Virus record (IMG/VR): IMGVR_UViG_3300009965_000007
Span: 1-60,206 of that record
Source of the DNA: a virus
DNA length: 60,206 bases
Strand: one strand, 5' to 3'
The notes under the pieces were generated by a model. That model ran no database searches and was not told where the DNA came from. It was given only the letters and a program-made list of their open reading frames with translations. A program made the position numbers and the translations under genes. Below, in pieces: positions 3,739 to 60,206 of the stretch; position 1 is the first letter of the stretch, and each line of letters begins with the position of its first letter.

Positions 3739-3742
3739 CAGC

Positions 3743-3780: not shown

Positions 3781-3799
3781 TATAATTCACATACCTAAA

Positions 3800-3842
3800 T
3801 TAATACTTAACCGCACTTAAACATTTCGCATTCATATCTTTG
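3800..3842 (+). promoter_or_regulatory. Late-type promoter P1 (portal)
   Basis: TTAATACTTAA (3800-3810), 24 nt, then TATCTTTG (3835-3842, fits Bacteroidetes -7 consensus TAnnTTTG). ATG at 3865. Confidence 0.7.
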
Positions 3843-3864
3843 CGACAGATAAAAATATATTTTT

Positions 3865-21995: not shown

Positions 21996-22023
21996 CTATT
22001 AAAATCTATAGTAGAAAAACATA

Positions 22024-22720: not shown

Positions 22721-23878
22721 TTATGGTTGTTGTTTTAATTTTTCTTGCATCATTTCAAAATCTTTTCTTATGTCTGTGGCGAGAACTTTTGCGTACGTGC
22801 TTTCGGTTATTTTGGTGGACGAGTGTCCGAGCATTTTTGAAATGTGTTCCATTCTTACGCCAAGCGAAAGGGTCATTACAGCGTACGTGTGTCGTGCCCA
22901 GTGAGAGGATATTGGCTTATCTATACCAGCGTACGATGCAACGACTTTCAAATACTGATTGTACTTTCCGTTGCTTATGATAGGTAGTTTGTAGTTGTAT
23001 TTCTTTAAAACCTGCATTGCCTTGTCGAGTATCATCACGAAATAATCCTCGTTTGTCTTTTGCCTTGTATCTCTAATAACATAGCAGCTTCCCTGTTTCT
23101 CCGTTTTCGAGAAGTCGAATTTCGCTAAGTCCCCGTATGAAAGACCTGTGTAGCTTTGGAATATAAACAAATCTCTTACACGTTCTACAGGCTTGTCTTT
23201 TATCGTACAGCATTCTATCTGTTTTAGTTCGTCCATTGATAGATACTTTAAGCCTTTAGACTTTCCACGCTCAATTTTTAGTTTGCTGTATGGGTTGGTT
23301 GTAATGTAGTCAAACCTTATAGCCTCGTTAATGTATGCTTTGAGCCTCTTGTGATAGCCATAGATGGTTGTCTGCAGATAATTCTTACCGTGTAGCCAGT
23401 CATCAAACCTTGTGATATTGGCAGTTGTTATGTCGGAGAAGTGTTCTATGTATTTAAACTCTTCGAGTGCCGCCAATAGAGTTCTGTGTACCCTCTTTGT
23501 ACTTTCCCTAATGTCGCCACGGTCAAGCAGTCGTTCTGCAATGAACTCTATAAACGTCAGGCTGCTATCATTGGAACTTGTGCGTTTCATAAAACTTGTA
23601 AGCTCATCGAACGAGAAAGGAACGTTGCGTTGTATTCCGTCCTTTATGAAGTCCTGTACCTGCTTCAGCTGTGCGTCTAAAGTGTCGTTGTATTCAAAAG
23701 TGTGTGGCGAATTGACAACCTTGTATCGTTCGTCCCATTGGTCAGCGTACACTTTTATTCCTGTCGAGAACCATTTGCGTTTCCTTTCGTGCATAACTTC
23801 CAGCTGTACCAATCCTTTTTTGTCTTTCGTTGCAACGTGTTTTCTATCAAACACAAGTCTAACCATAGCGTATTTCAT
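22721..23878 (-). CDS. int: Tyrosine site-specific integrase
   Basis: 385 aa. C-terminal 'HWARHTYAV...LGHSSTKITESTYAKV' carries R/H-x-x-R/H/Y catalytic signatures. The N-terminal region is arm-binding-like, as in Bacteroidetes integrases. Confidence 0.93.
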   Translation of the reverse strand: MKYAMVRLVFDRKHVATKDKKGLVQLEVMHERKRKWFSTGIKVYADQWDERYKVVNSPHTFEYNDTLDAQLKQVQDFIKDGIQRNVPFSFDELTSFMKRTSSNDSSLTFIEFIAERLLDRGDIRESTKRVHRTLLAALEEFKYIEHFSDITTANITRFDDWLHGKNYLQTTIYGYHKRLKAYINEAIRFDYITTNPYSKLKIERGKSKGLKYLSMDELKQIECCTIKDKPVERVRDLFIFQSYTGLSYGDLAKFDFSKTEKQGSCYVIRDTRQKTNEDYFVMILDKAMQVLKKYNYKLPIISNGKYNQYLKVVASYAGIDKPISSHWARHTYAVMTLSLGVRMEHISKMLGHSSTKITESTYAKVLATDIRKDFEMMQEKLKQQP

Positions 23879-29510: not shown

Positions 29511-31493
29511 ATGAAAATTCATTTTAAAACACTCACATTAAAAAATTTCAAAGGATTTTTAGGTGAGAAAACAATCAACTTCTGTGATACGGTAACTTCC
29601 ATATATGGAGCGAATCACACAGGAAAGACAACCGTCATAGATGCAATTCTATGGGTATTATTCGACAAGAACAGCGAGGGTGCAAGCGTCTTTGGCATAG
29701 ACACCAAAGACGAAAACAATAACGTAATTCCAAAATTGGAACACTGCGTTAAGCTTACGCTGTCAGTAGACGGAGTAGAACGCACTCTTGAAAAGGTGCG
29801 TAAAGACGTGTGGAGCAAGCCACGAGGACAAAAAGAAGAAGTCCTCTCAGGGCACACCACGAACTATTTTATAAGTGGCAACAAGTACACACAAACAGAG
29901 TACAAGGCAGAAATAGCAAATATATTGCCCGAAGCCCTGTTTAAATGCATAACAAACCCTATGTTCTTTCCAACCTTACCACCAATCGAACAACGTATGT
30001 TACTCGAACAGATGGTAGGAGAAACAAACTTTGTCGATGTTGTAGCTCAAAAAGAAGAATGGGCTTTGCTCGAAAAGTACATAGAGAATGGGGATATAGA
30101 AAGGTTTAGAGAAAACCTTGCATACAAGATTAAGGGTATAAAAGAGGAACTCAAACTTATTCCAAGCCGAATTAGTGAGCATACTAACGAACTTGCAGAG
30201 TTGCAAAGCAAAGATTACAACTTCCCCATACTCGAAAAGCGCATTGCGGAAATAGAAAAAGGTCTGCAGCATTATGATGATATGCTTGCCGATGCAAGCA
30301 AGGGCAGTGATGAGAAATACAAAGCCAAAATGGCTGTCCGCAAGCAGATACAAGCCTATGAAGCTGAACGAGACAGCATCATAAACGGCATAGAGAAAGA
30401 AAACAAGAGTGCTATTGATAAGCACGCAAGTAATATTGAAAACATACAGCGTGCTTTGAAAGATTTAAAAGGTAGTATTTCTTTCGTGGAGAGTGCGCAA
30501 AACGCATGCGAGCGTAGGTTGCAAGCCCTCATCGAACACAAGGAAGACTATCGCAAACGATGGCAACAGATAGAGGACGAGGCATTTGTGTGGGACGCAA
30601 ACAATGAAGTTTGCCCTACGTGCCACCAGCGACTTCCACAAGAAGATATTGACGAATTGCGTGAGCGTTTGCAAGGCAACTTCAACGAGAATAAGGCGAA
30701 GAAACAAGAAGCCTTAGATATAGAGGCGCAAAACATATTGGAGACACAAAAGAAAATAAATGAGGAAACAGAACGTCTCCAAAAGGACAAGGATAATACT
30801 CTTACAAGCATATCTGTGCTTGAAAAGAAATTAGAGGAAGCAAAAGGCACTCAACCCGAAAAGAAAGACTACACGACGGATAGCAGAGTTATTGAACTTA
30901 CAAACCTCATCAAAGGCGAAGAGGACAAGTTACAGCAACTCGAACAGGAAGAGGATAACACTACACAACAGGAGGCAATTAACCGTATAAAAGAGCAGAA
31001 GCAAGGACAACAGCAGCTCCGAGACCAACTCCGAGACCAACTCCAAACCAAAAAACAGATAGAGCGCAAGGAAAAGCGCATCGCTGAACTCACAGCAGAG
31101 CAGCAAAGCCTTAGTCAGCAGCTAACAGATTTAGAGCAGCAGGACAATGCAGCTATGAAGCTGGTGCAGTTTTATATAGAAGAGTTGGAAAAGAAAGTGA
31201 ATAAGATGTTTGATATTGTAAAATTTACAATGTTTGAACACCACCTTAATGGTAATATCAAAACAAAGTGCGAATGCACGATGCACGGCACACCTTACCA
31301 AGATTTATCGAACAGCGAAAAGATAAACGCTGGAATAGATATCATTAACGCTATGTGCAGGCATCGCAATGCTTTTGCGCCTATCATAATAGATAATGCA
31401 GAAAGCATCACAGATATATTGCCAACGGCAAGCCAGCAAATACGCCTGGTGGTAAGTGCGCAAGACAAAGAACTAACAGTAGTAAACTCTTAA
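29511..31493 (+). CDS. Rad50/SbcC-like AAA ATPase with coiled coil and CxxC hook
   Basis: Walker A 'GANHTGKTT', a long coiled-coil middle with 'CPTCHQRLP', and a C-terminal 'IIIDNAESI' Walker-B-like motif. Confidence 0.8.
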   Translation: MKIHFKTLTLKNFKGFLGEKTINFCDTVTSIYGANHTGKTTVIDAILWVLFDKNSEGASVFGIDTKDENNNVIPKLEHCVKLTLSVDGVERTLEKVRKDVWSKPRGQKEEVLSGHTTNYFISGNKYTQTEYKAEIANILPEALFKCITNPMFFPTLPPIEQRMLLEQMVGETNFVDVVAQKEEWALLEKYIENGDIERFRENLAYKIKGIKEELKLIPSRISEHTNELAELQSKDYNFPILEKRIAEIEKGLQHYDDMLADASKGSDEKYKAKMAVRKQIQAYEAERDSIINGIEKENKSAIDKHASNIENIQRALKDLKGSISFVESAQNACERRLQALIEHKEDYRKRWQQIEDEAFVWDANNEVCPTCHQRLPQEDIDELRERLQGNFNENKAKKQEALDIEAQNILETQKKINEETERLQKDKDNTLTSISVLEKKLEEAKGTQPEKKDYTTDSRVIELTNLIKGEEDKLQQLEQEEDNTTQQEAINRIKEQKQGQQQLRDQLRDQLQTKKQIERKEKRIAELTAEQQSLSQQLTDLEQQDNAAMKLVQFYIEELEKKVNKMFDIVKFTMFEHHLNGNIKTKCECTMHGTPYQDLSNSEKINAGIDIINAMCRHRNAFAPIIIDNAESITDILPTASQQIRLVVSAQDKELTVVNS

Positions 31494-31508
31494 AAACAAA
31501 AAATAATT

Positions 31509-32429
31509 ATGACACAACAACAAACAACAGCAACAGCACAACTTCCATCACAAAGTAATACAGCATTAAAGGAAATGCAGGAAAAAACCGTAAATGCGGT
31601 TATGAAACAGGTTGAAGAGCTAAAACAATCAGGCGGACTTGTGCTGCCAAAAGATTATAATGTAGGTAATGCTCTTAAAAGTGCGTGGATATACCTGCAA
31701 ACAATAGAGACACGCACCAAGCAGAAAGCAATAGATGTATGCACCAAATTAAGCATTTGTAATTGCTTACTCGAAATGGTGATACGTGGACAGCACCCTA
31801 AAAAACACTGCTACTTTATTGCTTGTGGTAACTCTCTTGAATATTGGGAACGCTACACGGGGAAGCTATTGCGTGCAAAGCGTGATACCAATATACAAGA
31901 AGTGGTGGCACAGGTCATCTATGAGGGAGATAATTTTGTCTACGGTGTAGACAAGAACGGATATTATCAATTGATAAAACACGAGACAGCAATAGAAAAC
32001 ATCAATCCCGACAAAATCAAAGCAGCTTATGCTGTCGTGATTTACAAAGATGGTAACAAGCATTTGGAGGTTATGACAATGGACCAAATCCGCAAGTCGT
32101 GGCAGCAAGGTGCAGCACGTGGCGCAAGTGGTGCGCATCAAAACTTCACAGACCAAATGTGCAAGAAAACAGTCATTGCACGTGCTTGCAAAATAGAATT
32201 AGATAGTGCAACTGACGGAGAAGAGGAAGAGTTGTCTATGACACCACCAAACGCAGCTGAAACTATTCGAGACGCAGCACAACAGCAAATAACAGTGCAG
32301 GCGAACGAAACCCCACAGTTGGAAAATAAGAAGCAGGAAACTATTGATTTTTCAGAGTCTGCAGTATATGAACCAGTAGCCGACACTCCACAACCCGATA
32401 ACAAAAGCGAGCGCAAGTGTCCCATCTAA
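31509..32429 (+). CDS. recT: RecT-like single-strand annealing protein (putative)
   Basis: 306 aa, lying between the SbcC-like ATPase and an MBL-fold hydrolase. The central region looks RecT-like and the C-terminus is acidic. Confidence 0.55.
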   Translation: MTQQQTTATAQLPSQSNTALKEMQEKTVNAVMKQVEELKQSGGLVLPKDYNVGNALKSAWIYLQTIETRTKQKAIDVCTKLSICNCLLEMVIRGQHPKKHCYFIACGNSLEYWERYTGKLLRAKRDTNIQEVVAQVIYEGDNFVYGVDKNGYYQLIKHETAIENINPDKIKAAYAVVIYKDGNKHLEVMTMDQIRKSWQQGAARGASGAHQNFTDQMCKKTVIARACKIELDSATDGEEEELSMTPPNAAETIRDAAQQQITVQANETPQLENKKQETIDFSESAVYEPVADTPQPDNKSERKCPI

Positions 32430-40548: not shown

Positions 40549-40695
40549 ATGAGAAGAAAAATAATCCCTAAACACTGCACCCACCCTATTTGCCATTGTA
40601 CAGATGGGGTGGACACAATAGACTGTTGGGCGTTCCTTAATGAAAGATTTGAGGAGTGTCCGTATACAAATTGTGAATGTTATAAACAAGAATGA
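40549..40695 (+). CDS. Cys-rich micro-ORF (48 aa), tentative
   Basis: Manual translation gives MRRKIIPKHCTHPICHCTDGVDTIDCWAFLNERFEECPYTNCECYKQE. Its stop overlaps the next ATG (ATGA). Confidence 0.35.
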   Translation: MRRKIIPKHCTHPICHCTDGVDTIDCWAFLNERFEECPYTNCECYKQE

Positions 40696-41561
40696 AGATA
40701 TTAGTACAATTTAGCGGAGGCAAGGATAGTCAGGCTTGCCTTATCAAGGCGGTAAATGACTACGGCAATGAAAAAGTTACAGCATTGTTCTGTGATACAG
40801 GGTGGGAGCACGAAGATACTTACACGCATATTCACAATGTTTGCAACCAATTAGGCGTAGAACTGATTACGCTCAAAAGCAGTAAGTATAAAGACTTTGT
40901 GGATATGTCTATTAAAAAAGGAAGATTTCCATCAACAATGGCAAGGTTCTGTACTTCTGAACTGAAAATAATACCAATGATAGATTATATTCTCTCACAA
41001 GATGAGAGCTTTATCATTATTCAAGGAATTAGAGCTAAAGAAAGTAAGGCACGTGCTGGGTATGATGTTGAATGTTCTTATTTTAAGGACTACTTCAACA
41101 AAGAAGTAAAAGGTCTATATCGCAAGAAAGATGTGATAGAATGGTGTAAGACACACGATGCTTCTGTCCTGCGACCTATATTCAGATGGTCAGCACAGGA
41201 TGTAATAGATTATATACTGGAGAATGGCCAGCGACCTAATCCTTTGTACGAACGTGGTTTTTCACGTGTTGGTTGCTTTCCTTGCATTATGTGTAGAAAG
41301 CGTGAAGCACAGTTGATTTCAAAAGATGAATGGGCAAGAAAACGGCTAATAGATGCTGAACAACGAATGAAAGATGAAACAGAAAGAGGTTCGTCTTTCT
41401 TTCCACCTATATACATTCCTAAACGTTTCTGTGCCAACGGAGAATACCCCACTGTGCAGGAGGTATTCAAATATGTAAACCGAAATGACACAGAACTGGA
41501 TATGTTTGAGCCAGAGGGAGGATATAGTTGTATGAGCTTATATCACGGTTTGTGTGAATAA
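40692..41561 (+). CDS. PAPS-reductase-like PP-loop protein
   Basis: The N-terminal 'ILVQFSGGKDSQACL' carries the PP-loop SGGxDS motif. 289 aa. Confidence 0.8.
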   Translation: MKILVQFSGGKDSQACLIKAVNDYGNEKVTALFCDTGWEHEDTYTHIHNVCNQLGVELITLKSSKYKDFVDMSIKKGRFPSTMARFCTSELKIIPMIDYILSQDESFIIIQGIRAKESKARAGYDVECSYFKDYFNKEVKGLYRKKDVIEWCKTHDASVLRPIFRWSAQDVIDYILENGQRPNPLYERGFSRVGCFPCIMCRKREAQLISKDEWARKRLIDAEQRMKDETERGSSFFPPIYIPKRFCANGEYPTVQEVFKYVNRNDTELDMFEPEGGYSCMSLYHGLCE

Positions 41562-47099: not shown

Positions 47100-47111
47100 A
47101 TTCTTTGCGTG

Positions 47112-47154
47112 TTAATACTTAAAAACCAAAAGCAAAGGTATTGTTTTAATTTTG
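47112..47154 (+). promoter_or_regulatory. Late-type promoter P3 (ejection-protein operon)
   Basis: TTAATACTTAA (47112-47122), 24 nt, then TAATTTTG (47147-47154). ATG at 47195. Interleaved with P6. Confidence 0.7.
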
Positions 47155-47175
47155 ACGCATTATTATAAGTATTAA
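47133..47175 (-). promoter_or_regulatory. Late-type promoter P6 (lysis operon)
   Basis: Minus strand reads TTAATACTTAT (47175-47165), 24 nt, then TACCTTTG (47140-47133). ATG at 47099. Confidence 0.6.
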
Positions 47176-47194
47176 TTCCACAAAACAAAGCAAT

Positions 47195-49081: not shown

Positions 49082-52000
49082 ATGCCAGATATAAAGAACA
49101 ACATAAAGGTTATTTACAACGCATTAGCCAAAGAGGGTTATAACGATTTAGGGTCAGAACAAGAGTTTGCAGAAAATATGGCAGACGAAAACAATCGAAA
49201 ACTTGTTTATAACACACTCAAAGGAAAAGAGTTTGCAGATGTAAAAGACTACGACAGCTTTTCTAATATGGTTTATCAGCAGCCACGAGCAGAGCAGCAG
49301 CAAGAGGAAGAAATAAAACCTGTAAAGCCTGCAAAGATAGACCCACGTTTTGTTGCTCCAAATGTAGGCAAGCCTACCGATGCACAGCCAATTATGAAAT
49401 CTGTGCAACAAGATACTGGTTTTGCTGCACCACAAGACTACAATTCGCAAAATGCTTTCTTATCTAATGTTGATAAGGATTATAATGTTGCAAGTCATAT
49501 CCCCGATGCACAGCAGCCTATTAAAATGTATGGTGCTGATAGCAATCTTGGAGAAGTCATAGATAACCTTTATACGGTCTACGATGAAGCATACAAGAAA
49601 GATAATCCTAAAAAAATTGCAGAAGCAGCAAATATGGCTCGTTCTATGGGACTTGATAACGAGCAAGCAGAAAAGGCACTCACTTTAGTACACGGTCTTT
49701 ATTCACAGAATATTGCTAACAACATAGCGGACTATATGTATAGCCGTATGAATAACGGAGACCCACTCTATGCATTGAAAGAGGTTTATTATGATAAAGA
49801 CTTTCAAAAGAAGCTCAAAGACACAACTACCCGATTAGGACTTGATAACACACAAGGTTTTGTAGAGTATTACCTAAAGCCAGCATTGCAACGTAAACTC
49901 GAAAACGAACGTGGGTTTACTGATACCGTAAACTTTGGCGTACAAAGCGGAAGCGATGATGTTGCAAAGAATACAGAAGTCTTTGAGAAACGCAAGGCAG
50001 AAGAAGACCTTTTGCAAAAGCAGGTTGATGCAATGAACGCAGAGGGTAAGCGCATAGAAGAAAAGGGACAACAAATGTACGACCCTAACTATAAAGACCG
50101 TCCGTGGTGGGCAGACTTGATACCTGTAGAGGGTGGCGGGCGAAGTGCATACGACGAAGCAGAGGGCATAAAGCGCAACCCCGAAGCCGAAGAACTTATG
50201 CGCACAGGACAAGCTATGCAACGTATGGCAGACGATGCACAAGCAGCCATCAGCGAGGATAACATTCTTCGTACAAGGAAGACGGACGGTCTCACCAATC
50301 AAATTAAGAATGCATTTGGGCGGATTTTACGTGGTGGAGCAAAAACCGCAACCGATATTCGTACGTGGGACTTCGGTTTTACCGACCTTAAGGACGCTAC
50401 AGTCATAAAGGCAGCAGCTGACGCCTACGCAAACAACCGTGCAACGGCAGCGCAGAAAGCACTGTTAAATGCCGTAGCCCTTAAAAATGCCGTAATGGGC
50501 AAGCACGGAGATGCATTGGGCGGACTGTATGGAGCAACAGGCACAACTATACAGATGGCTCCTTATATGATGCAGTTTGCAGCCAGTCCTGTAAAAGGTG
50601 TAGGCGTAGGGTTTCAGAAGTATTGCAGAACACAACTCGAAAAAGCGTTTGGCAAATACGCCACAGAAGCCGTAGGCAAGTTTGTTATCAAATCAGGAGA
50701 ACTCGCAGGACGTTTTGTTGGAGACGTAGCGCAAGGTGCAGCAATGACTACCATCTTCAATATGCCTGCCGTTGCAGCCGATACACATAAACGTATGACT
50801 GGTGATTTGGAAGCTGCCACCGATAGCAAAGGGAACATCGTCTACAGCGGCAAGCGTACAAACGTAAAGAGCGGCGGCAGGGCTTTTGCAGAAGCATTCA
50901 CGGCACAGACCATTGAAAACCAAAGCGAACTATTTGGCGAATACCTCAAACCTTTGGCAAACTTTACGCAAAAGGGTGCGGCAAAGGCTATGGATAAGTG
51001 GGGCTTGAGTAAGACGAAAGATTTCCTTACAGGTATTAACAACAAGCAAATTATGAAAAGCTTTAACCGCTTCACAAAGAACACAGAGTGGAACGGTTTA
51101 TTTGGTGAGGTTGGAGAAGTAATTGTTGGTAACTTTGAAAACGCATTCACTGTAGGCGATTTAAACCTTAATCTTGACATTAACGATGACAACAGCGTTT
51201 TCAGCAAGAAAGTAAACACCGATATTATTTTAGGTGTAGGCTTAGGTTGTGGCATCATCAGTGGCGCACGTGTGGGCAGCTACATTCGCAACAATCGCAG
51301 ACTAAACACCGCTATCAAAGATGCAGATAGCTATGCAGATGTTATCTTTGGCACTGACCGTTGGCAACAGATAAAGAGCGAGATAGACAACGCTCCCGAT
51401 GACAAGGCAGGAAATTTACTGCAATCTTACATAGATAGTGAAAAACTCAACAAAGAACAAAAACAAACCATTGTAGACTATACTGTTAATACGTATATTA
51501 AACGTGGTAATGATATTTCGCACCTCAAAAATGCCATAGAAGATAATATCTCTTCTGAACAGCAGGAAGTACAGTCTGCCTATGAAAACGGACAGAACGC
51601 ACGTGATGCGCAAATGAACGAAGTCAAAACCTCGCTCGATGAAGCAGAAAAGCACGCAGCAGAACTTTTAGGCGAGGACGAATTAAACGCATTGGACGGT
51701 GTCGAAGATGTAGACGCTTTCAAAGAAAGCAACGCTTACAAGTCCTATTCAGAAGAACAGAGAGAAACAGCACTTAAATATATCATTGCACGTACCGCAT
51801 ACAATGGTATGATTAATCGTGTACAGGACGAAATAAAAGCAGCTGTTAATAAAGCCAATGCAGAAATAGACAATCTCACTCACAAGGATAGCGGCACTAT
51901 CATTCGTGCAACTCTCAAAAATGGAGACCAGGAAGTATATGTTGTTTCAGGAAACGTGGCAATGTCTCCCGATGGAAAGAGCATAGACACCGAAAAGTCC

Positions 52001-55000
52001 GACAACGATATTGTCGTTTACAATACGGAGAGTGGGAAAAAGGAAATGCTCGATATAAAAGACCTACAAAGTGTAGATACTCCTATTGATGCAGCTACCT
52101 ACAAGGCTAACAATGCAGCAGAGACAACGCAACAAATAGCAGAGACAGAAGCCGCAAAAATAGACGGTGTTCGCAATTTCCATTACAACGACACTGTAAA
52201 GGTGCAAGACAAAGATGGCAACCTTATAAATGGCAGCGTACAAGATGTTACACCCGATGGCATTATTGTTGTTTCAGACGCATATCCTGGTGGCAAGACT
52301 TACACAGCAGAGGAACTCACTGCAATGCAACCGCAGCAGCAAACAGAAAGCAGTCCTACAGAAGCTATGCTACAAACGCCCGAAGCTCCAGCAGCAACAG
52401 AACAAACAGAAAGTGCTGCAAACGAAAGTACTGCAAACGAAGCTCCAGCACAAAAGGAAAGCGAGGTGAACTCTCCACAAAGTGAAGCAACGCCACAACA
52501 AGAAGAGACAGCAGAGCCACAGCAGCAAGCAATACCTACCAATGAGAAAGGGAACTTATTATATCACGAAGTTCCTGTAGAGCGTACGATAGAAGATTTG
52601 TACGATGGCTCATTAGACGATACAGAGATTGCCGACTTTATTTCTGCAAATATCGAAGCAGCACAAAAGGAATACAACAGTGTTGTAAAGAAAGTACCGA
52701 AGATTAGCACAGACAAAGCTAAATACTTGCAAGAAAAACAAGCCTATCAAGAAGAAGTTGGCAAAGCGAAAGCAAAGGTAGACTACTGGCAAGCTGTAGA
52801 AAACGAACGCCAACGCATCACCCACACCTCCCCCGAAGAACTTAAAAACGAAGAAGACGAATTAAGCGGAGAAGCGGCACGAAAAGAGTATAGAGGAATA
52901 ACGACAGGAGACGAAGAGAATCCTACGTCCGTAGAAGACCTCGTGAGAGACTTCTTGCGAGGCGCAAAAATAACTCCCGAAGATTTCAGAAGAGAAACAG
53001 GACTATCCATAAGCGAACAGAAAAAGTTCGTTGGTATGATTTCAAAACAAGGAAAGACTATTGCAAGGCTCAGCGAAGAACTTGCAGACTACGACGAATG
53101 GAATCTGGGTGGTAGATTCTTTGGCGGAGATAATAACGCAGCACGTGGAGCAATCATAGACGTACTTTTAAGTTCGAGAACACGTGGCGACTTCAAACAA
53201 CAGGACGCAACGGAAGAAGAAGAACGCTATATAGAAGCTGTAGAACAGCAAAGAGAACAGTGGTATTACGAAAACTACCATATGACATACGAAGAATATC
53301 TGCAATACAGAGAAATCGTATTGCCCGAATTGTTGAGAAAATACGCTAACTTTGCACCCGATATATTATATCCACAATTTGTAGCATCATTCGAAGATGC
53401 ATACGCAGCAGAACATTCACAAACAAACAATACAGAAAACAATGAACAACAAAGAAATGACACCACAACAGAAGAGCCAACAACTACTCCAGGCGATACA
53501 GTTTTGCAAACAGAAGAAACTAATAACAGCAGAGGAGATAGCCAAAGCAAAGAGCAACCAACAGAAGTTCCAACTGGCGTGCGAAGCAGTAATGAGAATG
53601 GAACTCTACCTCAAAGCGCACCCACAGAAGTAGACAAACAGGGCAATCCGCTTAACGCAGATGGCACACTTAAAATAGAAAAGGTAAACTCTATTGACGA
53701 ACTTACAGATAAAGACTTCGAAGAGCCTTATCGTAATGTAGAATTACCTACTTTACCAGCAAAAATCGATAAAGCCATCGATGCAAAAGGGAAACCTGTA
53801 GTTATAAAAAAGAATATCTTTTTAAAAAATAAGAGTAGTCATAATTTTAGCAATGAGCAAAGCAGAAATATACTATCCAACACTTTATACAACGCAGATT
53901 TAATAGGGCAAACACAACCAATAAAAAGACCAAAGCATTGGGTCGCAATACAGATTAGTGAAAAAAGTCCTATTACCGTATTAGAGGTAAATGAAAACAA
54001 AGACAACATAGAAGTTGTTGGTTGGTATACATTAGATAAACGTAACCTTGAAAGAATAAAAAGACAAGCTATCAGCGAGGGCGGCGAACTCCTCATATTA
54101 TCCTCAAAGGATAAGGTGGAAAGCCTTTCCACTCCTACTGATAGTTTGTCTTCTACCGACAAAGTTACACAATCTTCTCAAACAAAGCAAGAAAAGGAGA
54201 ACAAATTTTCACCCACACCACGAAAAGACGGTGAAAGCATAACAGACTATGCCGAAAGAGTAGCAGAAGAACACCAGGCACAACGTACACGCAAAGAAGA
54301 GGAAGCAAAGGTTGATACCAATCCCACAGAAGCACAAAAGGAAGCTGGCAACTACAAAAAAGGACACATCAAAGTAGACGGACTTAATATTACCATCGAA
54401 CAGCCAAAGGGTAGTATTCGTCGTGGCACTGATGCAAACGGCAAGCAGTGGGAAAGCGAAATGCACAATACCTACGGCTACATTCGTGGTACTGAAAGTG
54501 TAGACGGAGACCATATTGATGTGTATTTGTCAGACAATCCAACGGCAGGTAATGTGTTTGTTGTAGACCAAATAAACAAAGACGGTTCATTCGACGAACA
54601 TAAGGTGATGTACGGTTTCCCCGATATGGAAAGCGCAAAGCGAGCCTACCTTTCCAACTACGAAGAGGGCTGGCAAGGCTTAGGAAGCATTACCGAAGTC
54701 AAAAAAGAAGACTTCAAGAAATGGATTGACAGCAGCAAGCGAAAAACAAAACCTTTCGCAGAATACACGTCTGTAAAAACACAAGACGATGTGCAGACTA
54801 AAAAGCCAACAGAAGAGAACGCTGCACCAGCCAACACAGAAACAGAAGAAAACAATGCGCATAATTCAGAGGATATTATGCACGAACAAAAGAATGTACA
54901 ACTGCAGCAAGCTATCAACGCTTACGAAAACGCAACTAAATTCTACTATCAGCAACTAAAGGAAGGGAAACTCGACAAAGTATTCGAGAGTAAACAATGG

Positions 55001-58000
55001 AAAGATGTACTCCGCAAACAAACAGAACTGCAAAAAGTACTATTGCAGCTCAACTCCGAAGAACTGAAAGAACTACTCAAACAAACAAGTAACGAAGACA
55101 CCAAAAAGGAAATCAAAGGGGCATTAGACGCAGTACTTAGACAAGAACAACGGTCTATAGAATATAACGCAGTCTTAGACAAGCAAGAACCCATAACGCC
55201 TATATACAAAGAAGAGAAGAAATCCATTGCCGTTACAGAGTTTGTAGAAACGGACAAGAAAGAAGCAGAGATACACCCCGTTCTCACTGGCGTTTACCAC
55301 GACAACGGCTATGTTGTGGGCACTAATGCGCATATCTTGTTGGCTCGTAAAGAAGACTATAACAAATCTTTAGAGGGAAAGATAACAAACAAGAAAGGCG
55401 AGGTTATAGATGGCAAATATCCAAATTGGCGAGCTGTAGTCGAGGGTGAAACTACAACAAATTCGTGGGGTATCAATCTTGACGAACTGCACGCATTCGT
55501 AAGAGGCGTGCTTACCAAACTAAAGGCAGACGGAGCAAAGAAGAGTAGTATCGACAGCGCAACTATAGCATTTAAGGACACTGACGGAAAAATTATTGTG
55601 TGCAACGCAAAAACACTCGACAAGGCATTGCGTGGAGCAAAAAGCATAGGGGCAACTGAATTCGGAAACAAGTCTGAAACATTCGCACACGCACAAACCA
55701 AAAAAGGCTACGTTGTTTGCCCAACAATCTCCACATACCACAGCATAAACGATAACTGTTTCGTATACGCCCCGAAAGAAGCGGCACGACAACAAACCAC
55801 TGCAACACTCACCAACGACACCGAAGCAAAGCAGAAAGCCACAGAGGCAGTCTTAGCAGCTTTATCTAAGGCAGGTATAGAGGTTGTGCGTGCGACTGAC
55901 GAAGAAGTAAAAGCATTGCTTAGTAACCCCCATGCAACCACATTGCGCACCCCACAAGGCACAATTTATGGTTGGTCGGTTAATGGCAAAATTTATCTTA
56001 CAGAAGCAGGAATAAACCCTGATACGCCAATCCACGAGTACACACACTTGTGGGCAGAAGCAATGATGATAAAAAACAAGAAAGGCTGGGATAGTATAAA
56101 AGCACTGTTGAAAGATAATCCAATTTGGAATGAAGTCGTTGCAGATGCAAACTACTCTAATATTGCGGACAATGAAGATGCTGTTGCAAGTGAAGTCTTA
56201 AGCCGTATCAGCGGCAAAAAGAATGCTGCAAAAATGGAGGAGGAAGCACAAAGGGCTATAGATGAAGCTAAAGGTGTGTTTGAAAAAGCAAGAGCTACAA
56301 CTATACTTACCAATCTAAAGAAAGCACTCAATAGCTTATGGAAGTGGGTAAGCAAAAATATCTTTGATGTTAAAGAGTTTAGCAGCATAAACGAGGTAAC
56401 AGACAAAGTATTATACGACCTTATACATGGTACAAAACTAATAAACGACAAATCTTTAATAGGCGTACATAATATATCTGAACAAAAGCTACGCAAAGTG
56501 TTAAAGCAAGGTGGATTTGCCAATCCGTCTATAGCTGTTATTGATACAGACAAGCAGGTGCATAATGATTATGGAGAAATTTCTCTCATTTTGCCATCTC
56601 GCAAAGTCAATAAGTCTACAGGCAAAAATGTAGGAACATACGAGGGCGACGCATGGACACCTATGTATCCTATTATCGAAAAGCAAATGAGCAACGATGG
56701 TAATCTAATAATGCACAACGATATCAACTCTGTGCCAAATGAAATGCAGAGTGAAGTTCGCAATGCTTTGAATAGATGGTTAGACAATGGTTCGGATACC
56801 GATTTATCATATCTTTACCTATTCCAACAAGGGAAAGCTCCAAAGATGGCTACTGTAAAGCCTAAATATAGCAACGAAGTTTATAAATCGCTAAGAGACA
56901 TTATGTTTGGTGTTGATAGCGTTTATAACTTAACGAAAGGTGAGGTAAAGAAGTTGGTAGAGCTTTATGTGCAAACAGAGCTAAACGGCGACATTGACGA
57001 ATACAACAAAGCCAATGAGAGAAGAATTACAAAGTATAAAGAAACAATAGAAAGCGGAAGAACCAACTCTATGTATTACAAAATAGCAGAAAGAAATTTG
57101 GAAGAAGTCAAAAAGTATGGCTATCCACTTTCTTCTTTGAAAACATTTGCAGACGATGTACAGAGAGATAAAACTAAGCAAGGCAGTAAAAATGTACAAA
57201 AGACTCTTAACGCAGCAAGTCAAATTATAAAAGACGCTGGTCTTGAAGAAGATTTTAGGAATTGGGTAGAGGGCTTAAATAATCGCTACCAAACAAAAGA
57301 GGTTATTTTTGACGGCTTCACCCCAACAGGGAAGCGTAGATACATTCCTAACACTTTAGAAAATGTATCTAAGCTTATGAAGAAACAGGGACGACAAGCG
57401 TCTACAGGATTAGGCGTATCATTCTCAAACTTCGCTGCAAGCGTAATGAAAGCCAACGGAAGTCTTGCTAATATCAGAAAAAAGAAAAGCAAACTCACAA
57501 ACGAACATAAAGATATAGAAAACTTTGAAGAAAAATGGAAAGAAGTATATTTCGATTTAGCAATGAAGTTGCAACCTAATGCAAGTACATTTGACGACTA
57601 CGGCTTTACACGTTTACAAGAAGCTGCACTTGAGGCTGACCCGCAAGCATTTCTAAGCAAAGAGTACGGAGTAACATTATCTAAAGAAGACGTTCGCAAG
57701 TTGCAGCAAATGGTTAAGGCTATCCAAGAAGAAAGACCTGCTATGTACTTTGAAACAAAGTTTGAACGCCCTGTTACTCTCAATGAATTCTCTAAAGCCG
57801 TTGTTCCTGAAGACCTCTCTGATGATTTGCAAAAAACATTAAGAGATAATGGAATAGAGATTTTCACATATAAGCGAGGAGACGCTGAAGACCGACAAAA
57901 AGCAACACAAGAAGCAGCTTACAGTAGTGATGATATAGCATTTCAAATAATAAGCAATGGCAATAACGAAGCCAACAATGATAGCGACACACGTTTTCAG

Positions 58001-60206
58001 ATAGTAGGCAATAGTCTGTCAGATGAAGAAAAGAAGATTGTCGAAACTGCAAAGGCAAACGACACTTATATGAAAGCACCTAACGGCAAGCCTACCAATC
58101 TTAGCGAAAAGCAGTGGACACAAGTAAGAACCACAGCTTTCAAAAACTGGTTCGGAGACTGGGAAAAAGCTGCACGCATAGAAAAGGTGCGCAGGAGCAA
58201 AGCTGTCGTTATTAGTGGCAGCGAATACAAAGACAAATATGAACTAAACAGAGACAGTGCCAAAGAATGGATAAAAGATAATCTACGGGGGGAATATACC
58301 ATTGCTGATACAGAAGAAATAGTTAGCCTTACCAAAGTTGGAGCAAATAAGGTAACTTCACACGGAATGAGCAACAAAGCTCATCTTCAGTCAATTGCGG
58401 CTATTCCACAATTGATACGGAATGCTATATTTATAGAAGAACGTCCTAACGAAAAGCATAATAATAAATACGACAGTTACAAATATTATATTTGCGGATT
58501 AAAAATTGGCACAACTGACTATACCGTAAAGCTGACTATTGGAGTAAAGAGTGGAAAAAAGTATTACGACCACGCTTTGACAGAGATTGAAAAAGGGAAA
58601 CTGCTTGACCGTATTAACGACCAAGCAGACAAAAAAGGCTTTACAACAACTGGGGACGCACCTTTACAGTCTTATGCCCTTTCTATTGGCAAAGATAGCA
58701 AGTTACTTTCAATCCTCCAAACAAATTCATCAAAAGTTGTAGACGAGAACGGAGAGCCAATGGTGGTATACCACGGAACTTTGGCTGATGGCTTAAGGCA
58801 ATTCAGTACGGATTTTATAGGTAGCCGCTATAGTTACGATGAGAAAGGGTTCTTTTTTATAAGCAACAGGAAGATAGCTGATGATTATGCTGTTTCAGAA
58901 TTTGATGCAAGTCGCAGGGGAGAGGTGATAGATGCTTATGTAAGCTTAGGAAATCCTCTTGTTGTCAATTCGGAATGGTGCAGGAAGAATGGTCTTGGCA
59001 GTAATGTCTTCAAGGATAATGACGTTATAGAGTTCTGGGATAACTACCAATCGCTTATAGTGGAAGAGTCTGAACAAAACGACGGCGTGATTGTAACAGA
59101 TGGAGAAACGTCAATGGTTGTGGCTTTCTTCCCCAATCAAATAAAGAGTGCAACAGGCAATAACGGCAATTTCTCTACCACAGAAGACGATATCCTCTAC
59201 CGCACCGTCTTCGGTGGTAATAGTGGTTACGTAGGCTACTCAATGAGCAAACGTGCTGCAGAAGCTAAAGAAGAGGGCAGATATCCAAAAACTGAATTTA
59301 GAAGAGAATATCACATAACAGCAAAGTCGCTCGATATGCTAACAAGTCTTGGTTTCATTGACAATTCAGAATGGCATCATACCAGTATGTACGGCAACAA
59401 AACACCATTCTATGGCTGGACAGAAGATGAGTTTGCAGACGATTATCTCAAACACAAGAAAGAGGTAGACACACTCTGCAAAGGTATCGACCCTAAAACA
59501 AAACAGCCACTGTTAGAGAAAGTGGAGAAGCCACAGTACGAACACGAATATGAAATGCCACAATATGGCGAAGCAGAAACAGCCGCAAATCCAATTAGAG
59601 AGTGGAGACACAAGCAGATAGACAAATACGACCAGTTTACAGGCTTTAAAGGCTATGCAGATGCTACAGAAGAAGAAAAGAAAGAAAGAGACGCTTACTT
59701 GCATTCTCTCAACGAACAAATGGACGAGAAGATAAGAGAGATGTTAGCAAAAGACTATCCCGACTATCTTGCAGCAAAAAACGCCTTAGATGCTTATAAC
59801 AATTACGAGGAAGATTTACGCAAAGCAATAGGCGAACGCATAAAGGAATACTTAGACATTGACAAGTATAGCCAACGGTGGAGAGAACAAACCGCCACCA
59901 CACAGCCCACAGCCAATATAGAAACACTCACCAACCACGCAGAAAGTGTTGTGCAAAACTTACATCTTAACAACGTAGAAATAGTACCCGATGGCAGCAG
60001 CCTCAATGGCGAGCAAGCCACTGCAAAAGGTTTCTACAACAAGCGCACAGGTAAAATCGTAGTAGTGGCAAGCAACCACACCGACATTGCAGACATAGAG
60101 AAAACAGTACTCCACGAAGCAGTAGCGCATCACGGATTAAGAGAACTCTTTGGAGACAACTTCGACAACTTCCTCGACACCGTATTTGCAAAAGCCGACA
60201 TCGAAA
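49082..60206 (+). CDS. Giant polyvalent-type virion/ejection protein, N-terminal about 3,700 codons; the ORF leaves the window and continues at 128..3738
   Basis: Manual translation from ATG 49082, checked codon by codon over 49082-56100 and by eye beyond, showed no stop. The track lists no + ORF at 49066-60206, which is expected only if this ORF never closes in the window. Confidence 0.85.
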   Translation, partial: MPDIKNNIKVIYNALAKEGYNDLGSEQEFAENMADENNRKLVYNTLKGKEFADVKDYDSFSNMVYQQPRAEQQQEEEIKPVKPAKIDPRFVAPNVGKPTDAQPIMKSVQQDTGFAAPQDYNSQNAFLSNVDKDYNVASHIPDAQQPIKMYGADSNLGEVIDNLYTVYDEAYKKDNPKKIAEAANMARSMGLDNEQAEKALTLVHGLYSQNIANNIADYMYSRMNNGDPLYALKEVYYDKDFQKKLKDTTTRLGLDNTQGFVEYYLKPALQRKLENERGFTDTVNFGVQSGSDDVAKNTEVFEKRKAEEDLLQKQVDAMNAEGKRIEEKGQQMYDPNYKDRPWWADLIPVEGGGRSAYDEAEGIKRNPEAEELMRTGQAMQRMADDAQAAISEDNILRTRKTDGLTNQIKNAFGRILRGGAKTATDIRTWDFGFTDLKDATVIKAAADAYANNRATAAQKALLNAVALKNAVMGKHGDALGGLYGATGTTIQMAPYMMQFAASPVKGVGVGFQKYCRTQLEKAFGKYATEAVGKFVIKSGELAGRFVGDVAQGAAMTTIFNMPAVAADTHKRMTGDLEAATDSKGNIVYSGKRTNVKSGGRAFAEAFTAQTIENQSELFGEYLKPLANFTQKGAAKAMDKWGLSKTKDFLTGINNKQIMKSFNRFTKNTEWNGLFGEVGEVIVGNFENAFTVGDLNLNLDINDDNSVFSKKVNTDIILGVGLGCGIISGARVGSYIRNNRRLNTAIKDADSYADVIFGTDRWQQIKSEIDNAPDDKAGNLLQSYIDSEKLNKEQKQTIVDYTVNTYIKRGNDISHLKNAIEDNISSEQQEVQSAYENGQNARDAQMNEVKTSLDEAEKHAAELLGEDELNALDGVEDVDAFKESNAYKSYSEEQRETALKYIIARTAYNGMINRVQDEIKAAVNKANAEIDNLTHKDSGTIIRATLKNGDQEVYVVSGNVAMSPDGKSIDTEKSDNDIVVYNTESGKKEMLDIKDLQSVDTPIDAATYKANNAAETTQQIAETEAAKIDGVRNFHYNDTVKVQDKDGNLINGSVQDVTPDGIIVVSDAYPGGKTYTAEELTAMQPQQQTESSPTEAMLQTPEAPAATEQTESAANESTANEAPAQKESEVNSPQSEATPQQEETAEPQQQAIPTNEKGNLLYHEVPVERTIEDLYDGSLDDTEIADFISANIEAAQKEYNSVVKKVPKISTDKAKYLQEKQAYQEEVGKAKAKVDYWQAVENERQRITHTSPEELKNEEDELSGEAARKEYRGITTGDEENPTSVEDLVRDFLRGAKITPEDFRRETGLSISEQKKFVGMISKQGKTIARLSEELADYDEWNLGGRFFGGDNNAARGAIIDVLLSSRTRGDFKQQDATEEEERYIEAVEQQREQWYYENYHMTYEEYLQYREIVLPELLRKYANFAPDILYPQFVASFEDAYAAEHSQTNNTENNEQQRNDTTTEEPTTTPGDTVLQTEETNNSRGDSQSKEQPTEVPTGVRSSNENGTLPQSAPTEVDKQGNPLNADGTLKIEKVNSIDELTDKDFEEPYRNVELPTLPAKIDKAIDAKGKPVVIKKNIFLKNKSSHNFSNEQSRNILSNTLYNADLIGQTQPIKRPKHWVAIQISEKSPITVLEVNENKDNIEVVGWYTLDKRNLERIKRQAISEGGELLILSSKDKVESLSTPTDSLSSTDKVTQSSQTKQEKENKFSPTPRKDGESITDYAERVAEEHQAQRTRKEEEAKVDTNPTEAQKEAGNYKKGHIKVDGLNITIEQPKGSIRRGTDANGKQWESEMHNTYGYIRGTESVDGDHIDVYLSDNPTAGNVFVVDQINKDGSFDEHKVMYGFPDMESAKRAYLSNYEEGWQGLGSITEVKKEDFKKWIDSSKRKTKPFAEYTSVKTQDDVQTKKPTEENAAPANTETEENNAHNSEDIMHEQKNVQLQQAINAYENATKFYYQQLKEGKLDKVFESKQWKDVLRKQTELQKVLLQLNSEELKELLKQTSNEDTKKEIKGALDAVLRQEQRSIEYNAVLDKQEPITPIYKEEKKSIAVTEFVETDKKEAEIHPVLTGVYHDNGYVVGTNAHILLARKEDYNKSLEGKITNKKGEVIDGKYPNWRAVVEGETTTNSWGINLDELHAFVRGVLTKLKADGAKKSSIDSATIAFKDTDGKIIVCNAKTLDKALRGAKSIGATEFGNKSETFAHAQTKKGYVVCPTISTYHSINDNCFVYAPKEAARQQTTATLTNDTEAKQKATEAVLAALSKAGIEVVRATDEEVKALLSNPHATTLRTPQGTIYGWSVNGKIYLTEAGINPDTPIHEYTHLWAEAMMIKNKKGWDSIKALLKDNPIWNEVVADANYSNIADNEDAVASEVLSRISGKKNAAKMEEEAQRAIDEAKGVFEKARATTILTNLKKALNSLWKWVSKNIFDVKEFSSINEVTDKVLYDLIHGTKLINDKSLIGVHNISEQKLRKVLKQGGFANPSIAVIDTDKQVHNDYGEISLILPSRKVNKSTGKNVGTYEGDAWTPMYPIIEKQMSNDGNLIMHNDINSVPNEMQSEVRNALNRWLDNGSDTDLSYLYLFQQGKAPKMATVKPKYSNEVYKSLRDIMFGVDSVYNLTKGEVKKLVELYVQTELNGDIDEYNKANERRITKYKETIESGRTNSMYYKIAERNLEEVKKYGYPLSSLKTFADDVQRDKTKQGSKNVQKTLNAASQIIKDAGLEEDFRNWVEGLNNRYQTKEVIFDGFTPTGKRRYIPNTLENVSKLMKKQGRQASTGLGVSFSNFAASVMKANGSLANIRKKKSKLTNEHKDIENFEEKWKEVYFDLAMKLQPNASTFDDYGFTRLQEAALEADPQAFLSKEYGVTLSKEDVRKLQQMVKAIQEERPAMYFETKFERPVTLNEFSKAVVPEDLSDDLQKTLRDNGIEIFTYKRGDAEDRQKATQEAAYSSDDIAFQIISNGNNEANNDSDTRFQIVGNSLSDEEKKIVETAKANDTYMKAPNGKPTNLSEKQWTQVRTTAFKNWFGDWEKAARIEKVRRSKAVVISGSEYKDKYELNRDSAKEWIKDNLRGEYTIADTEEIVSLTKVGANKVTSHGMSNKAHLQSIAAIPQLIRNAIFIEERPNEKHNNKYDSYKYYICGLKIGTTDYTVKLTIGVKSGKKYYDHALTEIEKGKLLDRINDQADKKGFTTTGDAPLQSYALSIGKDSKLLSILQTNSSKVVDENGEPMVVYHGTLADGLRQFSTDFIGSRYSYDEKGFFFISNRKIADDYAVSEFDASRRGEVIDAYVSLGNPLVVNSEWCRKNGLGSNVFKDNDVIEFWDNYQSLIVEESEQNDGVIVTDGETSMVVAFFPNQIKSATGNNGNFSTTEDDILYRTVFGGNSGYVGYSMSKRAAEAKEEGRYPKTEFRREYHITAKSLDMLTSLGFIDNSEWHHTSMYGNKTPFYGWTEDEFADDYLKHKKEVDTLCKGIDPKTKQPLLEKVEKPQYEHEYEMPQYGEAETAANPIREWRHKQIDKYDQFTGFKGYADATEEEKKERDAYLHSLNEQMDEKIREMLAKDYPDYLAAKNALDAYNNYEEDLRKAIGERIKEYLDIDKYSQRWREQTATTQPTANIETLTNHAESVVQNLHLNNVEIVPDGSSLNGEQATAKGFYNKRTGKIVVVASNHTDIADIEKTVLHEAVAHHGLRELFGDNFDNFLDTVFAKADIE
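54347..54700 (+). other. Inorganic-pyrophosphatase-like domain within the giant ORF
   Basis: 'GNYKKGHIKVDGLNITIEQPKGSIRRG...MHNTYGYIRGTESVDGDHIDVYL'. Compare family I PPase '[20 protein letters not shown]'. Confidence 0.7.
55274..55730 (+). other. DnaN (beta-clamp)-like domain within the giant ORF
   Basis: 'HPVLTGVYHDNGYVVGTNAHILLA', 'KYPNWRAVV' (compare DnaN RFPDYRRVLP), and 'IVCNAKTLDKALRGA...GYVVCPT'. Confidence 0.45.
56033..56047 (+). other. HExxH zincin motif (HEYTH) within the giant ORF
   Basis: Context is 'GKIYLTEAGINPDTPIHEYTHLWAEAM'. Confidence 0.6.
58736..59205 (+). other. ADP-ribosyltransferase-like (ART-PolyVal-like) segment within the giant ORF
   Basis: 'VVDENGEPMVVYHGT...KGFFFISNRKIADDYA...VIDAYVSLGNPL...MVVAFFPNQIKSATGNNGNFS' resembles the polyvalent-protein ART family as I recall it. 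Confidence 0.5.
60080..60206. repeat. Terminal overlap copy 2 (identical to 1-127)
   Basis: Same 127-nt string as the window start. Confidence 0.95.
60113..60133 (+). other. His-rich HEAVAHH motif (also at 34-54), a possible second metallopeptidase-like site
   Basis: Context is 'KGFYNKRTGKIVVVASNHTDIADIEKTVLHEAVAHHGLRELFG'. Not a canonical HExxH. Confidence 0.35.

Follow-up and report, generated by a model that had tools for sequence, protein, structure and literature searches.

A 553-kDa phage-type polyvalent protein encoded across the contig junction of a temperate gut phage genome and probably packaged and injected at infection

What kind of protein would a phage encode in one gene that takes a quarter of its 60-kb genome, and when in the infection would such a protein act? 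The question is raised by the IMG/VR virus record IMGVR_UViG_3300009965_000007, the whole of which (positions 1 to 60,206; hereafter the window) was analyzed and which represents a temperate, Bacteroides-type phage of the gut. A preliminary description of this DNA had proposed a giant open reading frame (ORF) that crosses the contig junction and encodes a ‘polyvalent’ protein, i.e., a large multidomain protein injected together with phage DNA. The explanation favored here, to which a probability of roughly three in four is assigned, is that the gene encodes a 553-kDa phage-type polyvalent protein which is third in a conserved gene block, is built in three layers, and is packaged in the virion and injected. 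That it is a genuine gene of the polyvalent family is close to certain.

Positions 1-127 and 60080-60206 of the window are an exact 127-bp repeat, indicating a circular genome of 60,079 bp once the overlap is collapsed (G+C content 40.3%). On this circle the ORF begins at the ATG at 49082, passes 60079 and base 1 in a single frame of 14,736 nt and ends with the codon 3736-3738, its sole in-frame stop; it thus occupies 24.5% of the genome (14,736/60,079). The closest in-frame upstream stop is located at 49058, so that 49082 is the earliest possible ATG. The product is 4,911 residues long, with an isoelectric point of 5.4. Collapse and re-translation, which had been suggested as a check, therefore sustain the proposed ORF of about 14.7 kb and about 4,911 codons across the junction (about 24.5% of the genome) and reveal no internal stop. 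The other two forward frames contain 309 and 315 stops over the same stretch, and the probability of 4,911 codons without a stop at the base composition of the window is ~1e-138. The program-made ORF list includes the tail only (205-3738, 1,177 codons) and no plus-strand ORF of at least 80 codons from 49082 to the window end, because ORFs running off that end go unlisted; the gene is indeed as easy to miss as had been remarked.

An ORF that appears only once a terminal overlap is collapsed, and that is broken in two related contigs, could be an artefact, arising from chimeric assembly, from circularization in error or from a decaying pseudogene that is still open by chance. This reading was tested and is not supported, and its probability is considered negligible. 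The junction is crossed collinearly by independent contigs: window positions 55804 to 437 show a gap-free alignment, at 98.3% identity, to a Joint Genome Institute (JGI) metagenome contig, and IMG/VR contig 3300008148_000018 contains a collinear ORF of 4,914 codons with 93% identity from the first to the last residue. Intact orthologues are also present in the nearest cultured phages by protein similarity, the sewage Bacteroides phages BS-TP4 (PQ571277; genome 64,274 bp; gp3, 5,391 aa, 25% of the genome), BKO1-TP3 (PQ571269; 64,956 bp; gp55, 5,553 aa, 26%) and BF1-TP2 (PQ571263; 68,350 bp; gp68, 3,633 aa). Furthermore, 18 IMG/VR contigs of 56-73 kb, on which the loci of the N- and C-terminal modules described below were joined, carry single unbroken ORFs of 4,677-6,205 codons (23-30% of the contig), and the frame is open through the entire flank in most IMG/VR loci that have a full 10-kb upstream flank. 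The ratio of nonsynonymous to synonymous substitution rates (dN/dS) relative to the 93%-identical relative is 0.21 overall and is low along the whole length, remaining below 0.51 in every 400-residue window, including stretches without a recognizable domain, with minima of 0.04-0.15 in the N-terminal 800 residues and most of the C-terminal third. The giant ORF is thus a genuine gene under purifying selection. Of the two breaks, one coincides with a scaffold gap filled with N, flanked by duplicated sequence, and the other results from one frameshift in a single metagenome contig; naturally split versions of the gene were considered and dropped on these grounds.

Seven distinct Pfam domains were identified in the giant protein, with E-values from 1.5e-11 to 3e-60 (Table 1), all of them from families defined on polyvalent proteins. 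Polyvalent proteins were defined as polypeptides, often of more than 2,000 residues, in which 2-15 biochemically unrelated domains are joined (Iyer, Burroughs, Anand, de Souza & Aravind 2017), and two of the domains found here, InPase and LPD38, are listed among those exclusive to the phage type (Iyer et al. 2017, PMC5512222). By its domain content the giant protein, with seven such domains in 4,911 residues, is a phage-type polyvalent protein, and its gene is located among packaging and virion genes; both the earlier polyvalent reading and the earlier claim of several unrelated enzyme-like modules are borne out by these findings.

Table 1. Features of the giant gene and of the adjacent genes. 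Residue numbers refer to the 4,911-residue protein and positions to the window.
Feature	Residues	Positions	Strand	Evidence
Giant ORF, 5' part	1-3666 (up to base 60079)	49082-60206	+	Translation; 60080-60206 repeat 1-127
Giant ORF, 3' part	3667-4911, then stop 3736-3738	1-3738	+	Translation; junction seen in independent contigs
Conserved N-terminal module with LPD14	417-1080	50330-52321	+	Pfam, hydropathy, relatives
LPD14	610-740	50909-51301	+	Pfam E 1.5e-11
Low-complexity P/T/Q/E/S/A linker 1	1081-1160	52322-52561	+	Composition scan
Low-complexity linker 2	1441-1525	53402-53656	+	Composition scan
LPD13 (PF18825)	1526-1663	53657-54070	+	Pfam E 1.2e-40
InPase (PF18823)	1750-1882	54329-54727	+	Pfam E 3.3e-60
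Unassigned module(s) with HExxH	1940-2454	54899-56443	+	Motif scan; no family match
PBECR5 (PF18814)	2455-2649	56444-57028	+	Pfam E 1.6e-21
LPD3 (PF18798)	3056-3162	58247-58567	+	Pfam E 2.5e-19
ART-PolyVal (PF18760)	3221-3364	58742-59173	+	Pfam E 6.1e-33
Putative zincin-like domain, first part	3606-3800 (whole domain)	59897-60206	+	Alignment, AF2
Putative zincin-like domain, second part		1-402	+	Alignment, AF2
Conserved C-terminal chassis, mostly alpha-helical	3800-4911	400-3735	+	AF2, Pfam, PHROG, BLASTP
LPD38 (PF18857)	4526-4725	2578-3177	+	Pfam E 2.6e-30
T7-gp14-family protein (family-level assignment), 183 aa		47195-47746	+	Pfam PF24072, orthologues
Conserved partner protein, 433 aa		47764-49065	+	Orthologues; no family match
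Portal		3865-5829	+	phrog_156 E 1.5e-95
Large terminase subunit		5962-8091	-	phrog_2 E 1.3e-16

As read from the sequence, the protein is organized in three layers, namely a conserved N-terminal module (residues ~417-1260), a central string of predicted enzymes with low-complexity linkers, and a conserved C-terminal unit (~3600-4911). The N-terminal module, which is present in 108 IMG/VR stretches, exhibits ~25% identity to BS-TP4 gp3 and BKO1-TP3 gp55 over residues 417-1261, and a Kyte-Doolittle scan places a strongly hydrophobic helix at residues 711-733 (51212-51280), inside LPD14. Linkers rich in P, T, Q and E had been proposed at about 52300-52540 and 53400-53640; composition scored in 60-residue windows agrees, the fraction of P/T/Q/E/S/A/N reaching 0.93 at residues ~1061-1170 (~52262-52590) and 0.75 at ~1431-1510 (~53372-53610).

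Within the central string, InPase is a family-I inorganic-pyrophosphatase-like OB-fold domain with the acidic motif DGDHIDV at residue 1808. It aligns with the C-terminal extension of the portal of phage Pa193 (PDB 9b41_L, E 2.7e-31), where the part that holds it is disordered in the solved structure, and this was the sole match when the whole giant protein was searched against PDB sequences with phmmer. Residues 1940-2454, for which neither Pfam nor NCBIfam returned a match, contain a canonical HExxH motif (HEYTH, residues 2318-2322, 56033-56047) and have 24 homologues, mostly short fragments bearing other polyvalent-protein domains. PBECR5 is predicted to be an RNase with the Barnase/EndoU/ColicinE5-D/RelE fold, and the block to which it belongs (residues 2455-2966) is common to BF1-TP2 gp68 at 45% identity over 511 residues. 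LPD3 also aligns with residues 3238-3333 of gp75 of phage Bcep22 (E 2.7e-5), while ART-PolyVal retains the His of its YHGT motif. No additional domains were found when ten unassigned segments were searched against Pfam at E<=5 and six against NCBIfam, and Pfam, NCBIfam and PHROGs gave no evidence of a methyltransferase, a helicase, a lytic transglycosylase or an RNA polymerase in the giant protein.

The ends of the protein are constant among relatives and its middle is exchanged. Only the N-terminal module (residues 417 to ~1260, 23-28% identity), InPase (46-71%, retained in nearly all relatives) and the C-terminal unit (~3570-4840, 33-45%) are common to distant relatives. For example, BS-TP4 and BKO1-TP3 are 78% identical over the first 2,590 residues and 62% over the last 1,250, with ~1,600 central residues that lack detectable similarity and include a Strawberry-notch-type helicase in the former and an SNF2-type helicase in the latter; ART and PBECR5 occur in both the window and BF1-TP2, in permuted order. 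Similar replacements are seen over short distances. Segments are replaced, and 635 nt inserted, in contigs whose DNA is 95-98% identical to the window, and in one close relative the sequences around the ART core are identical but enclose a different core (33% identity). Along the gene, synonymous divergence from the 93%-identical relative lies anywhere between 0.004 and 0.31, a mosaic pattern. These comparisons indicate that the central cassette is swapped by recombination among related phages while the chassis stays.

In the JGI 3300008080 contig (L005), the replaced segments correspond to window positions 53641-54141 and 54879-55804, and the insertion (contig positions 9167-9802; window 437-457) adds ~210 residues exactly where the zincin-like domain meets the C-terminal module. 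A motif of the form D[DN][IV]x[FY][RQ] (DDILYR, DNVLYR) occurs at residues 2950, 3369 and 3818 (~57929, 59186 and 454), at three module boundaries, and the identical flanks of the swapped ART cassette of the close relative end in this motif, which is rare in more distant relatives. DD[IV]LYR was considered as a general cleavage or junction signal, and dropped, with three occurrences at module boundaries here and none or one in most relatives.

The largest conserved part is the C-terminal chassis. A second hydrophobic helix (residues 4498-4523, 2494-2571) directly precedes its LPD38 domain. The AlphaFold2 (AF2) model of residues 3800-4911, built from a 32-sequence alignment, has a mean predicted local distance difference test (pLDDT) score of 70 and a predicted TM-score (pTM) of 0.63. 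It matches 76 predicted viral structures in BFVD at E<=1e-3 over ~1,000 residues, the better matches having TM-scores of ~0.45-0.67, from which it follows that LPD38 covers only about one fifth of a larger conserved chassis. The matched models represent the C-terminal portions of large proteins that are encoded by podoviruses and by uncultured phages. Ralstonia phage Alix and E. coli phage PTXU04 are among these, and the matching piece from PTXU04 is taken to be part of gp25; the N-terminal parts of such relatives carry transglycosylase (LT_GEWL in some), RelA/SpoT or methylase domains. At the sequence level, the chassis matches phrog_14770 (E ~1e-110), the Stx-phage profile phrog_616 and the DarB-like profile phrog_10089, and BLASTP aligns residues 4066-4701 with residues 3848-4464 of Bcep22 gp75 (E 1.5e-33). 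When 1.84 billion proteins were searched with a profile of the C-terminal module, 14,807 cluster representatives matched at E<=1e-3, and in nearly all of the best 150 of these it is located at or very close to the C-terminus; it was also found in at least 575 IMG/VR viral stretches.

Directly before the chassis, residues 3606-3800 are modeled by AF2 (pLDDT 84.6) as a helix, three strands, a long helix bearing H3678-E3679-x3-H3683 (34-51) and a later helix bearing E3729-E3730, all five residues being invariant in 40 sequences. The order of secondary structure elements is that described for the zincin core (Iyer et al. 2017). In that survey a zincin-like metallopeptidase (MPTase), with HExxH and a downstream Glu, was present in ~36% of polyvalent proteins and is not obligatory. 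The domain is accordingly termed zincin-like, an assignment that is suggested by the model and is unproven.

The position of the gene is equally constant. It is preceded by genes for a 183-residue and a 433-residue protein and followed after 127 nt on the same strand by the portal gene, with no terminator predicted between; the terminase gene is convergent with that of the portal and marks the end of the rightward operon. The triad of small, medium and giant genes is conserved, with gaps of ~10 nt, in the ~60 related IMG/VR loci that had a readable upstream flank and in the three cultured Bacteroides phages, where the order is ~160-183 aa, ~370-440 aa and giant, followed by the portal in two of the three. 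The 183-residue protein, which has a Gly-rich hydrophobic N-terminal helix, is assigned to the T7_gp14 family at family level, given that 21 of its 22 orthologues match this family when scanned singly (best E 1.9e-7). In the 433-residue protein the N-terminus is rich in P, Q and T, and the region after it, which is probably helical, in K, E and A; orthologues of this protein (355-433 aa) always immediately precede the giant gene. It had been suggested that the giant gene is last in a late operon with two other ejection-protein-like genes; this holds for the gp14-like gene, but the giant gene is third of at least four, being followed by the portal gene, and the 433-residue protein bears no detectable similarity to known ejection proteins.

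The divergent intergenic region 47100-47194 lies upstream of the 183-residue protein gene, and the sequence TAATTTTG at 47147-47154, ~40 nt upstream of the start of that gene, is a candidate match to TAnnTTTG, the -7 element of Bacteroides promoters. In two related contigs (L004 and L005), with ~95% DNA identity to the window in this region, the portal has 654 residues and matches Pfam P22_portal.

This neighborhood also bears on whether the product is instead a cytoplasmic polyprotein, i.e., one cleaved into replication or takeover enzymes in the infected cell and never packaged. Long flexible linkers between modules and two zincin-like motifs would suit such a protein, as would the fact that no structural repeat or capsid-targeting signal was identified; the gene, however, is situated between a gp14-family gene and the portal gene and not among the replication genes, which are at about 29-34 kb, and homologues with the same C-terminal module occur in purified virions, as described below. 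We regard a cytoplasmic polyprotein as very improbable.

Among known systems, the closest cultured relatives are BS-TP4, BKO1-TP3 and BF1-TP2, which are likewise temperate, with integrases, and share the N-terminal module, InPase and C-terminal module with the window at 25-56% identity; the portals of BS-TP4 and BKO1-TP3 are 67% identical to that of the window. These two phages carry an unrelated helicase-type cassette in place of the ART and RNase of the window, while in BF1-TP2 the central cassette is permuted.

Among the Lessieviruses of Burkholderia, Bcep22 gp75 (4,602 aa; annotated ‘DarB-like antirestriction protein’) takes 21.6% of a 63,882-bp genome, and JC1 gp69 (4,515 aa) takes 22.1% of a 61-kb genome and contains regions resembling lytic transglycosylase (LT), methylase, helicase, LPD3 and LPD38 (PMC9144972). 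The JC1 giant and the two smaller proteins that precede it, gp67 (196 aa) and gp68 (510 aa), were all detected in purified virions by mass spectrometry (PMC9144972). Thus, the Lessieviruses resemble the window in devoting ~22% of a temperate genome of 61-64 kb to one ORF, in having LPD3 and LPD38 near the C-terminus, in their homologous C-terminal module and in the two smaller virion-associated proteins before the JC1 giant. They differ in their lytic transglycosylase, methylase and helicase cargo, none of which was detected in the window protein, and in the location of the gene, which closes the morphogenesis module, ahead of the lysis genes, and does not adjoin the portal gene. BLASTP of the two small proteins of the window against Bcep22 gp74 showed no similarity.

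Two further proteins share the C-terminal LPD38 chassis by family (phrog_616) or fold (BFVD). Stx phage phi24B gp47 (2,811 aa, LPD38) is abundant in virions and invisible in cryo-electron microscopy maps, and has been proposed to be an ejection protein (bioRxiv 10.64898/2026.04.10.717836); PTXU04 gp25 (2,198 aa) was required for infection in a knock-down screen (PMC11879866). Both are about half the size of the window protein, belong to phages of proteobacterial hosts and have other N-terminal domains (LPD5, LPD1 and a MuF-C peptidase in gp47). The 5,007-residue gp27 of Erwinia phage Pavtok, a putative ejection protein of a short-tailed phage, is likened here by description only (PMC8402733).

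The proteins gp14, gp15 and gp16 of phage T7 sit on the portal within the head until they are ejected, whereupon they form a trans-envelope channel. The window resembles T7 in possessing three adjacent genes of rising size (183/433/4,911 aa as compared to 196/747/1,318 aa), the first of which is in the Pfam T7_gp14 family. It differs in that the giant lacks a lytic transglycosylase and that no likeness to gp15 or gp16 in sequence or fold was detected, so that beyond gp14 the resemblance is positional only. A virion RNA polymerase of the type found in N4 and crAss-like phages was also considered and rejected, as Pfam and PHROGs returned no RNA polymerase family and no DxDGD-type motif is present.

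The DarB protein of phage P1, a large virion-packaged protein that is injected to protect incoming DNA, is the prototype of the ‘DarB-like’ label attached to some relatives. DarB is defined by methyltransferase and helicase domains. No methyltransferase was found in the window protein with Pfam, NCBIfam or PHROGs, nor a superfamily-2 helicase, and the PHROG ‘DarB-like’ match spans only InPase and the C-terminal module; since methylase and helicase are absent, the label is unsuitable for this protein.

Based on the above, it is probable, at the odds given at the outset, that the giant protein is packaged in the virion and ejected. Its synthesis would be late, and the procapsid would take it up close to the portal, along with its two smaller partners. 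By our own estimate (partial specific volume 0.73 cm3/g; ~2 nm3 per packaged bp), a compact 553-kDa protein occupies ~670 nm3, i.e., the volume of ~330 bp of packaged DNA, so that several copies would fit in the head. At infection the chain, mostly in an unfolded state, would pass through the portal and the tail channel either before the DNA or together with it; the conserved end modules, through their hydrophobic helices, and the gp14-like protein would serve delivery and envelope crossing. The central enzymes would then act on host targets within the first minutes: ART would ADP-ribosylate proteins, PBECR5 would cleave RNA and InPase would hydrolyze pyrophosphate or a nucleotide signal, while the zincin-like domain or domains may cut the chain into working pieces. 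An additional role in building the conduit itself is proposed tentatively, its chances being put a little short of even.

Several observations weigh against this explanation or parts of it. About three quarters of the residues of the giant protein have no domain assignment, and its processing and all of its enzyme activities are predicted. The ART copy may be altered or inactive, because a Phe (GFFF) stands where some relatives have Tyr. The metal-site-like motif of the zincin-like domain is spaced HExxxH and not HExxH; the Pfam MPTase-PolyVal model does not match the giant protein, nor does any peptidase family, and a Foldseek search of the domain model against the PDB returned nothing significant (M61 aminopeptidase and MATCAP at E ~1, probability ~0.1). 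The chassis model likewise has no significant PDB match in Foldseek, T7 gp15 and gp16 included (best E 0.56), so that a gp15/gp16-like fold is unsupported, and hhalign of T7 gp16 against the giant family is not significant (probability 0.2%). As for the partners, the 183-residue protein itself scores below threshold against PF24072 (E 5.7e-4, 20.3 bits, gathering score 27), and hhalign of its family against the T7 gp14 sequence is not significant. The 433-residue protein has no Pfam or PHROG match and no detectable relative of known function; its 23 orthologues returned nothing from Pfam except one marginal unrelated match, and hhalign of the family against T7 gp15 gave a probability of 0.1%. 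Finally, virion morphology has not been reported for BS-TP4 or BKO1-TP3.

An alternative that retains packaging is that the protein is purely anti-defense cargo, in the manner of P1 DarB or T4 Alt, with no role in the delivery path and dispensable on hosts that lack the matching defenses. This is the role proposed by Iyer et al., and it is consistent with recognizable domains (ART, RNase, pyrophosphatase) typical of conflict systems, with the fast turnover of cargo between relatives and with the DarB-like annotation of the BKO1-TP3 orthologue and the JC1 homologue. Against it stand ~2,100 residues of N- and C-terminal modules, which are conserved across phages with wholly different cargo, are constrained by purifying selection more strongly than the rest of the gene and each carry a membrane-like helix. 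Moreover, a fixed triad joins the gene to that for a T7 gp14-family protein, and the PTXU04 homologue is needed for plaques on a laboratory host. Pure cargo is therefore judged unlikely. Anti-defense and delivery are nevertheless compatible and not exclusive roles of a packaged and injected polyvalent protein.

A more specific version of the injected-protein reading is that the conserved ends constitute a self-processing delivery chassis by which gut Bacteroidales phages inject an exchangeable library of enzymes, the HExxxH protease cutting at module boundaries and the two hydrophobic helices entering the host envelope. This proposal is considered less likely than not.

The preliminary description had also placed the protein near the size extreme for a phage of 60 kb. 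With respect to published isolates this was fair, as the 5,007-residue Pavtok protein was named the longest known phage protein in 2021 (PMC8402733), but it does not hold within the clade to which the window protein belongs. That length is exceeded in the cultured Bacteroides phages (5,391-5,553 aa) and in metagenomic members (up to 6,927 aa); the best 150 representatives have a median of 4,653 aa, with 61 of the 150 at least as long as the window protein. These sizes were taken from merged IMG/VR loci and the representative library, while lengths from the first homologue search, which stop at ~2,145 aa, were not used. Given such relatives, 4,911 residues is an ordinary or even small size for the family. 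Megablast of 40000-60079 against 50,697 phage records returned no match, and the phage thus has no close cultured relative at the DNA level. BS-TP4, in turn, was found in 31% of 930 Chinese viromes (PMC12694917). The giant gene is never mentioned in the paper on the three sewage phages (PMC12694917) and is annotated as ‘hypothetical’ or ‘DarB-like’ in their genomes, and no paper discussing polyvalent proteins in Bacteroides phages was found in the literature searched. BS-TP4 and BKO1-TP3 have a second very large gene, of ~2,640 codons (gp14, from 26704 onwards, and gp44, from 28792 onwards, respectively), with no counterpart of that size in the window; BS-TP4 gp14 is a reported target of a diversity-generating retroelement (PMC12694917).

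Elsewhere in the window, a tyrosine integrase gene (22721-23878, minus strand) identifies the phage as temperate. Between it and a minus-strand ORF of 967 codons, five direct repeats with ~79-nt spacing and the core TTCCCTATTTGTCGC are located at 22017-22403; they may serve the integrase as arm-type or attachment sites, or act as operators. Only the giant gene exceeds the 967-codon ORF (18882-21785) in size, and the whole of this ORF aligns with PHROG 32516 (E 1e-255). Genes for an SbcC/Rad50-like ATPase (660 aa) and then a RecT-like annealing protein at 29511-32429 resemble a recombination module, which may have a bearing on cassette exchange in the giant gene. A gene resembling that for 3'-phosphoadenylylsulfate (PAPS) reductase is present at 40692-41561 (phrog_424, E 3.7e-55), and both Bcep22 and JC1 encode one close to the giant gene.

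The gene is not of a new kind, as giant polyvalent virion proteins of ~60-kb phages have been known since the Bcep22 genome paper of 2011 and the survey of Iyer et al. in 2017. What merits recording is the abundance and size of the family in gut Bacteroidales phages, related phages devoting 22-30% of the genome to one gene of up to ~6,900 codons, together with the cassette swaps between near-identical phages and the conserved HExxxH domain. The combination of a fixed chassis with a swapped cassette offers an experimental handle for separating the delivery part from host-specific weaponry, and cultured phage-host pairs exist. If the ends were indeed a self-processing chassis, prevalent temperate gut phages would represent a natural modular protein-injection system, and their cargo could be taken as an inventory of the functions that are important during the first minutes after Bacteroides cells are infected.

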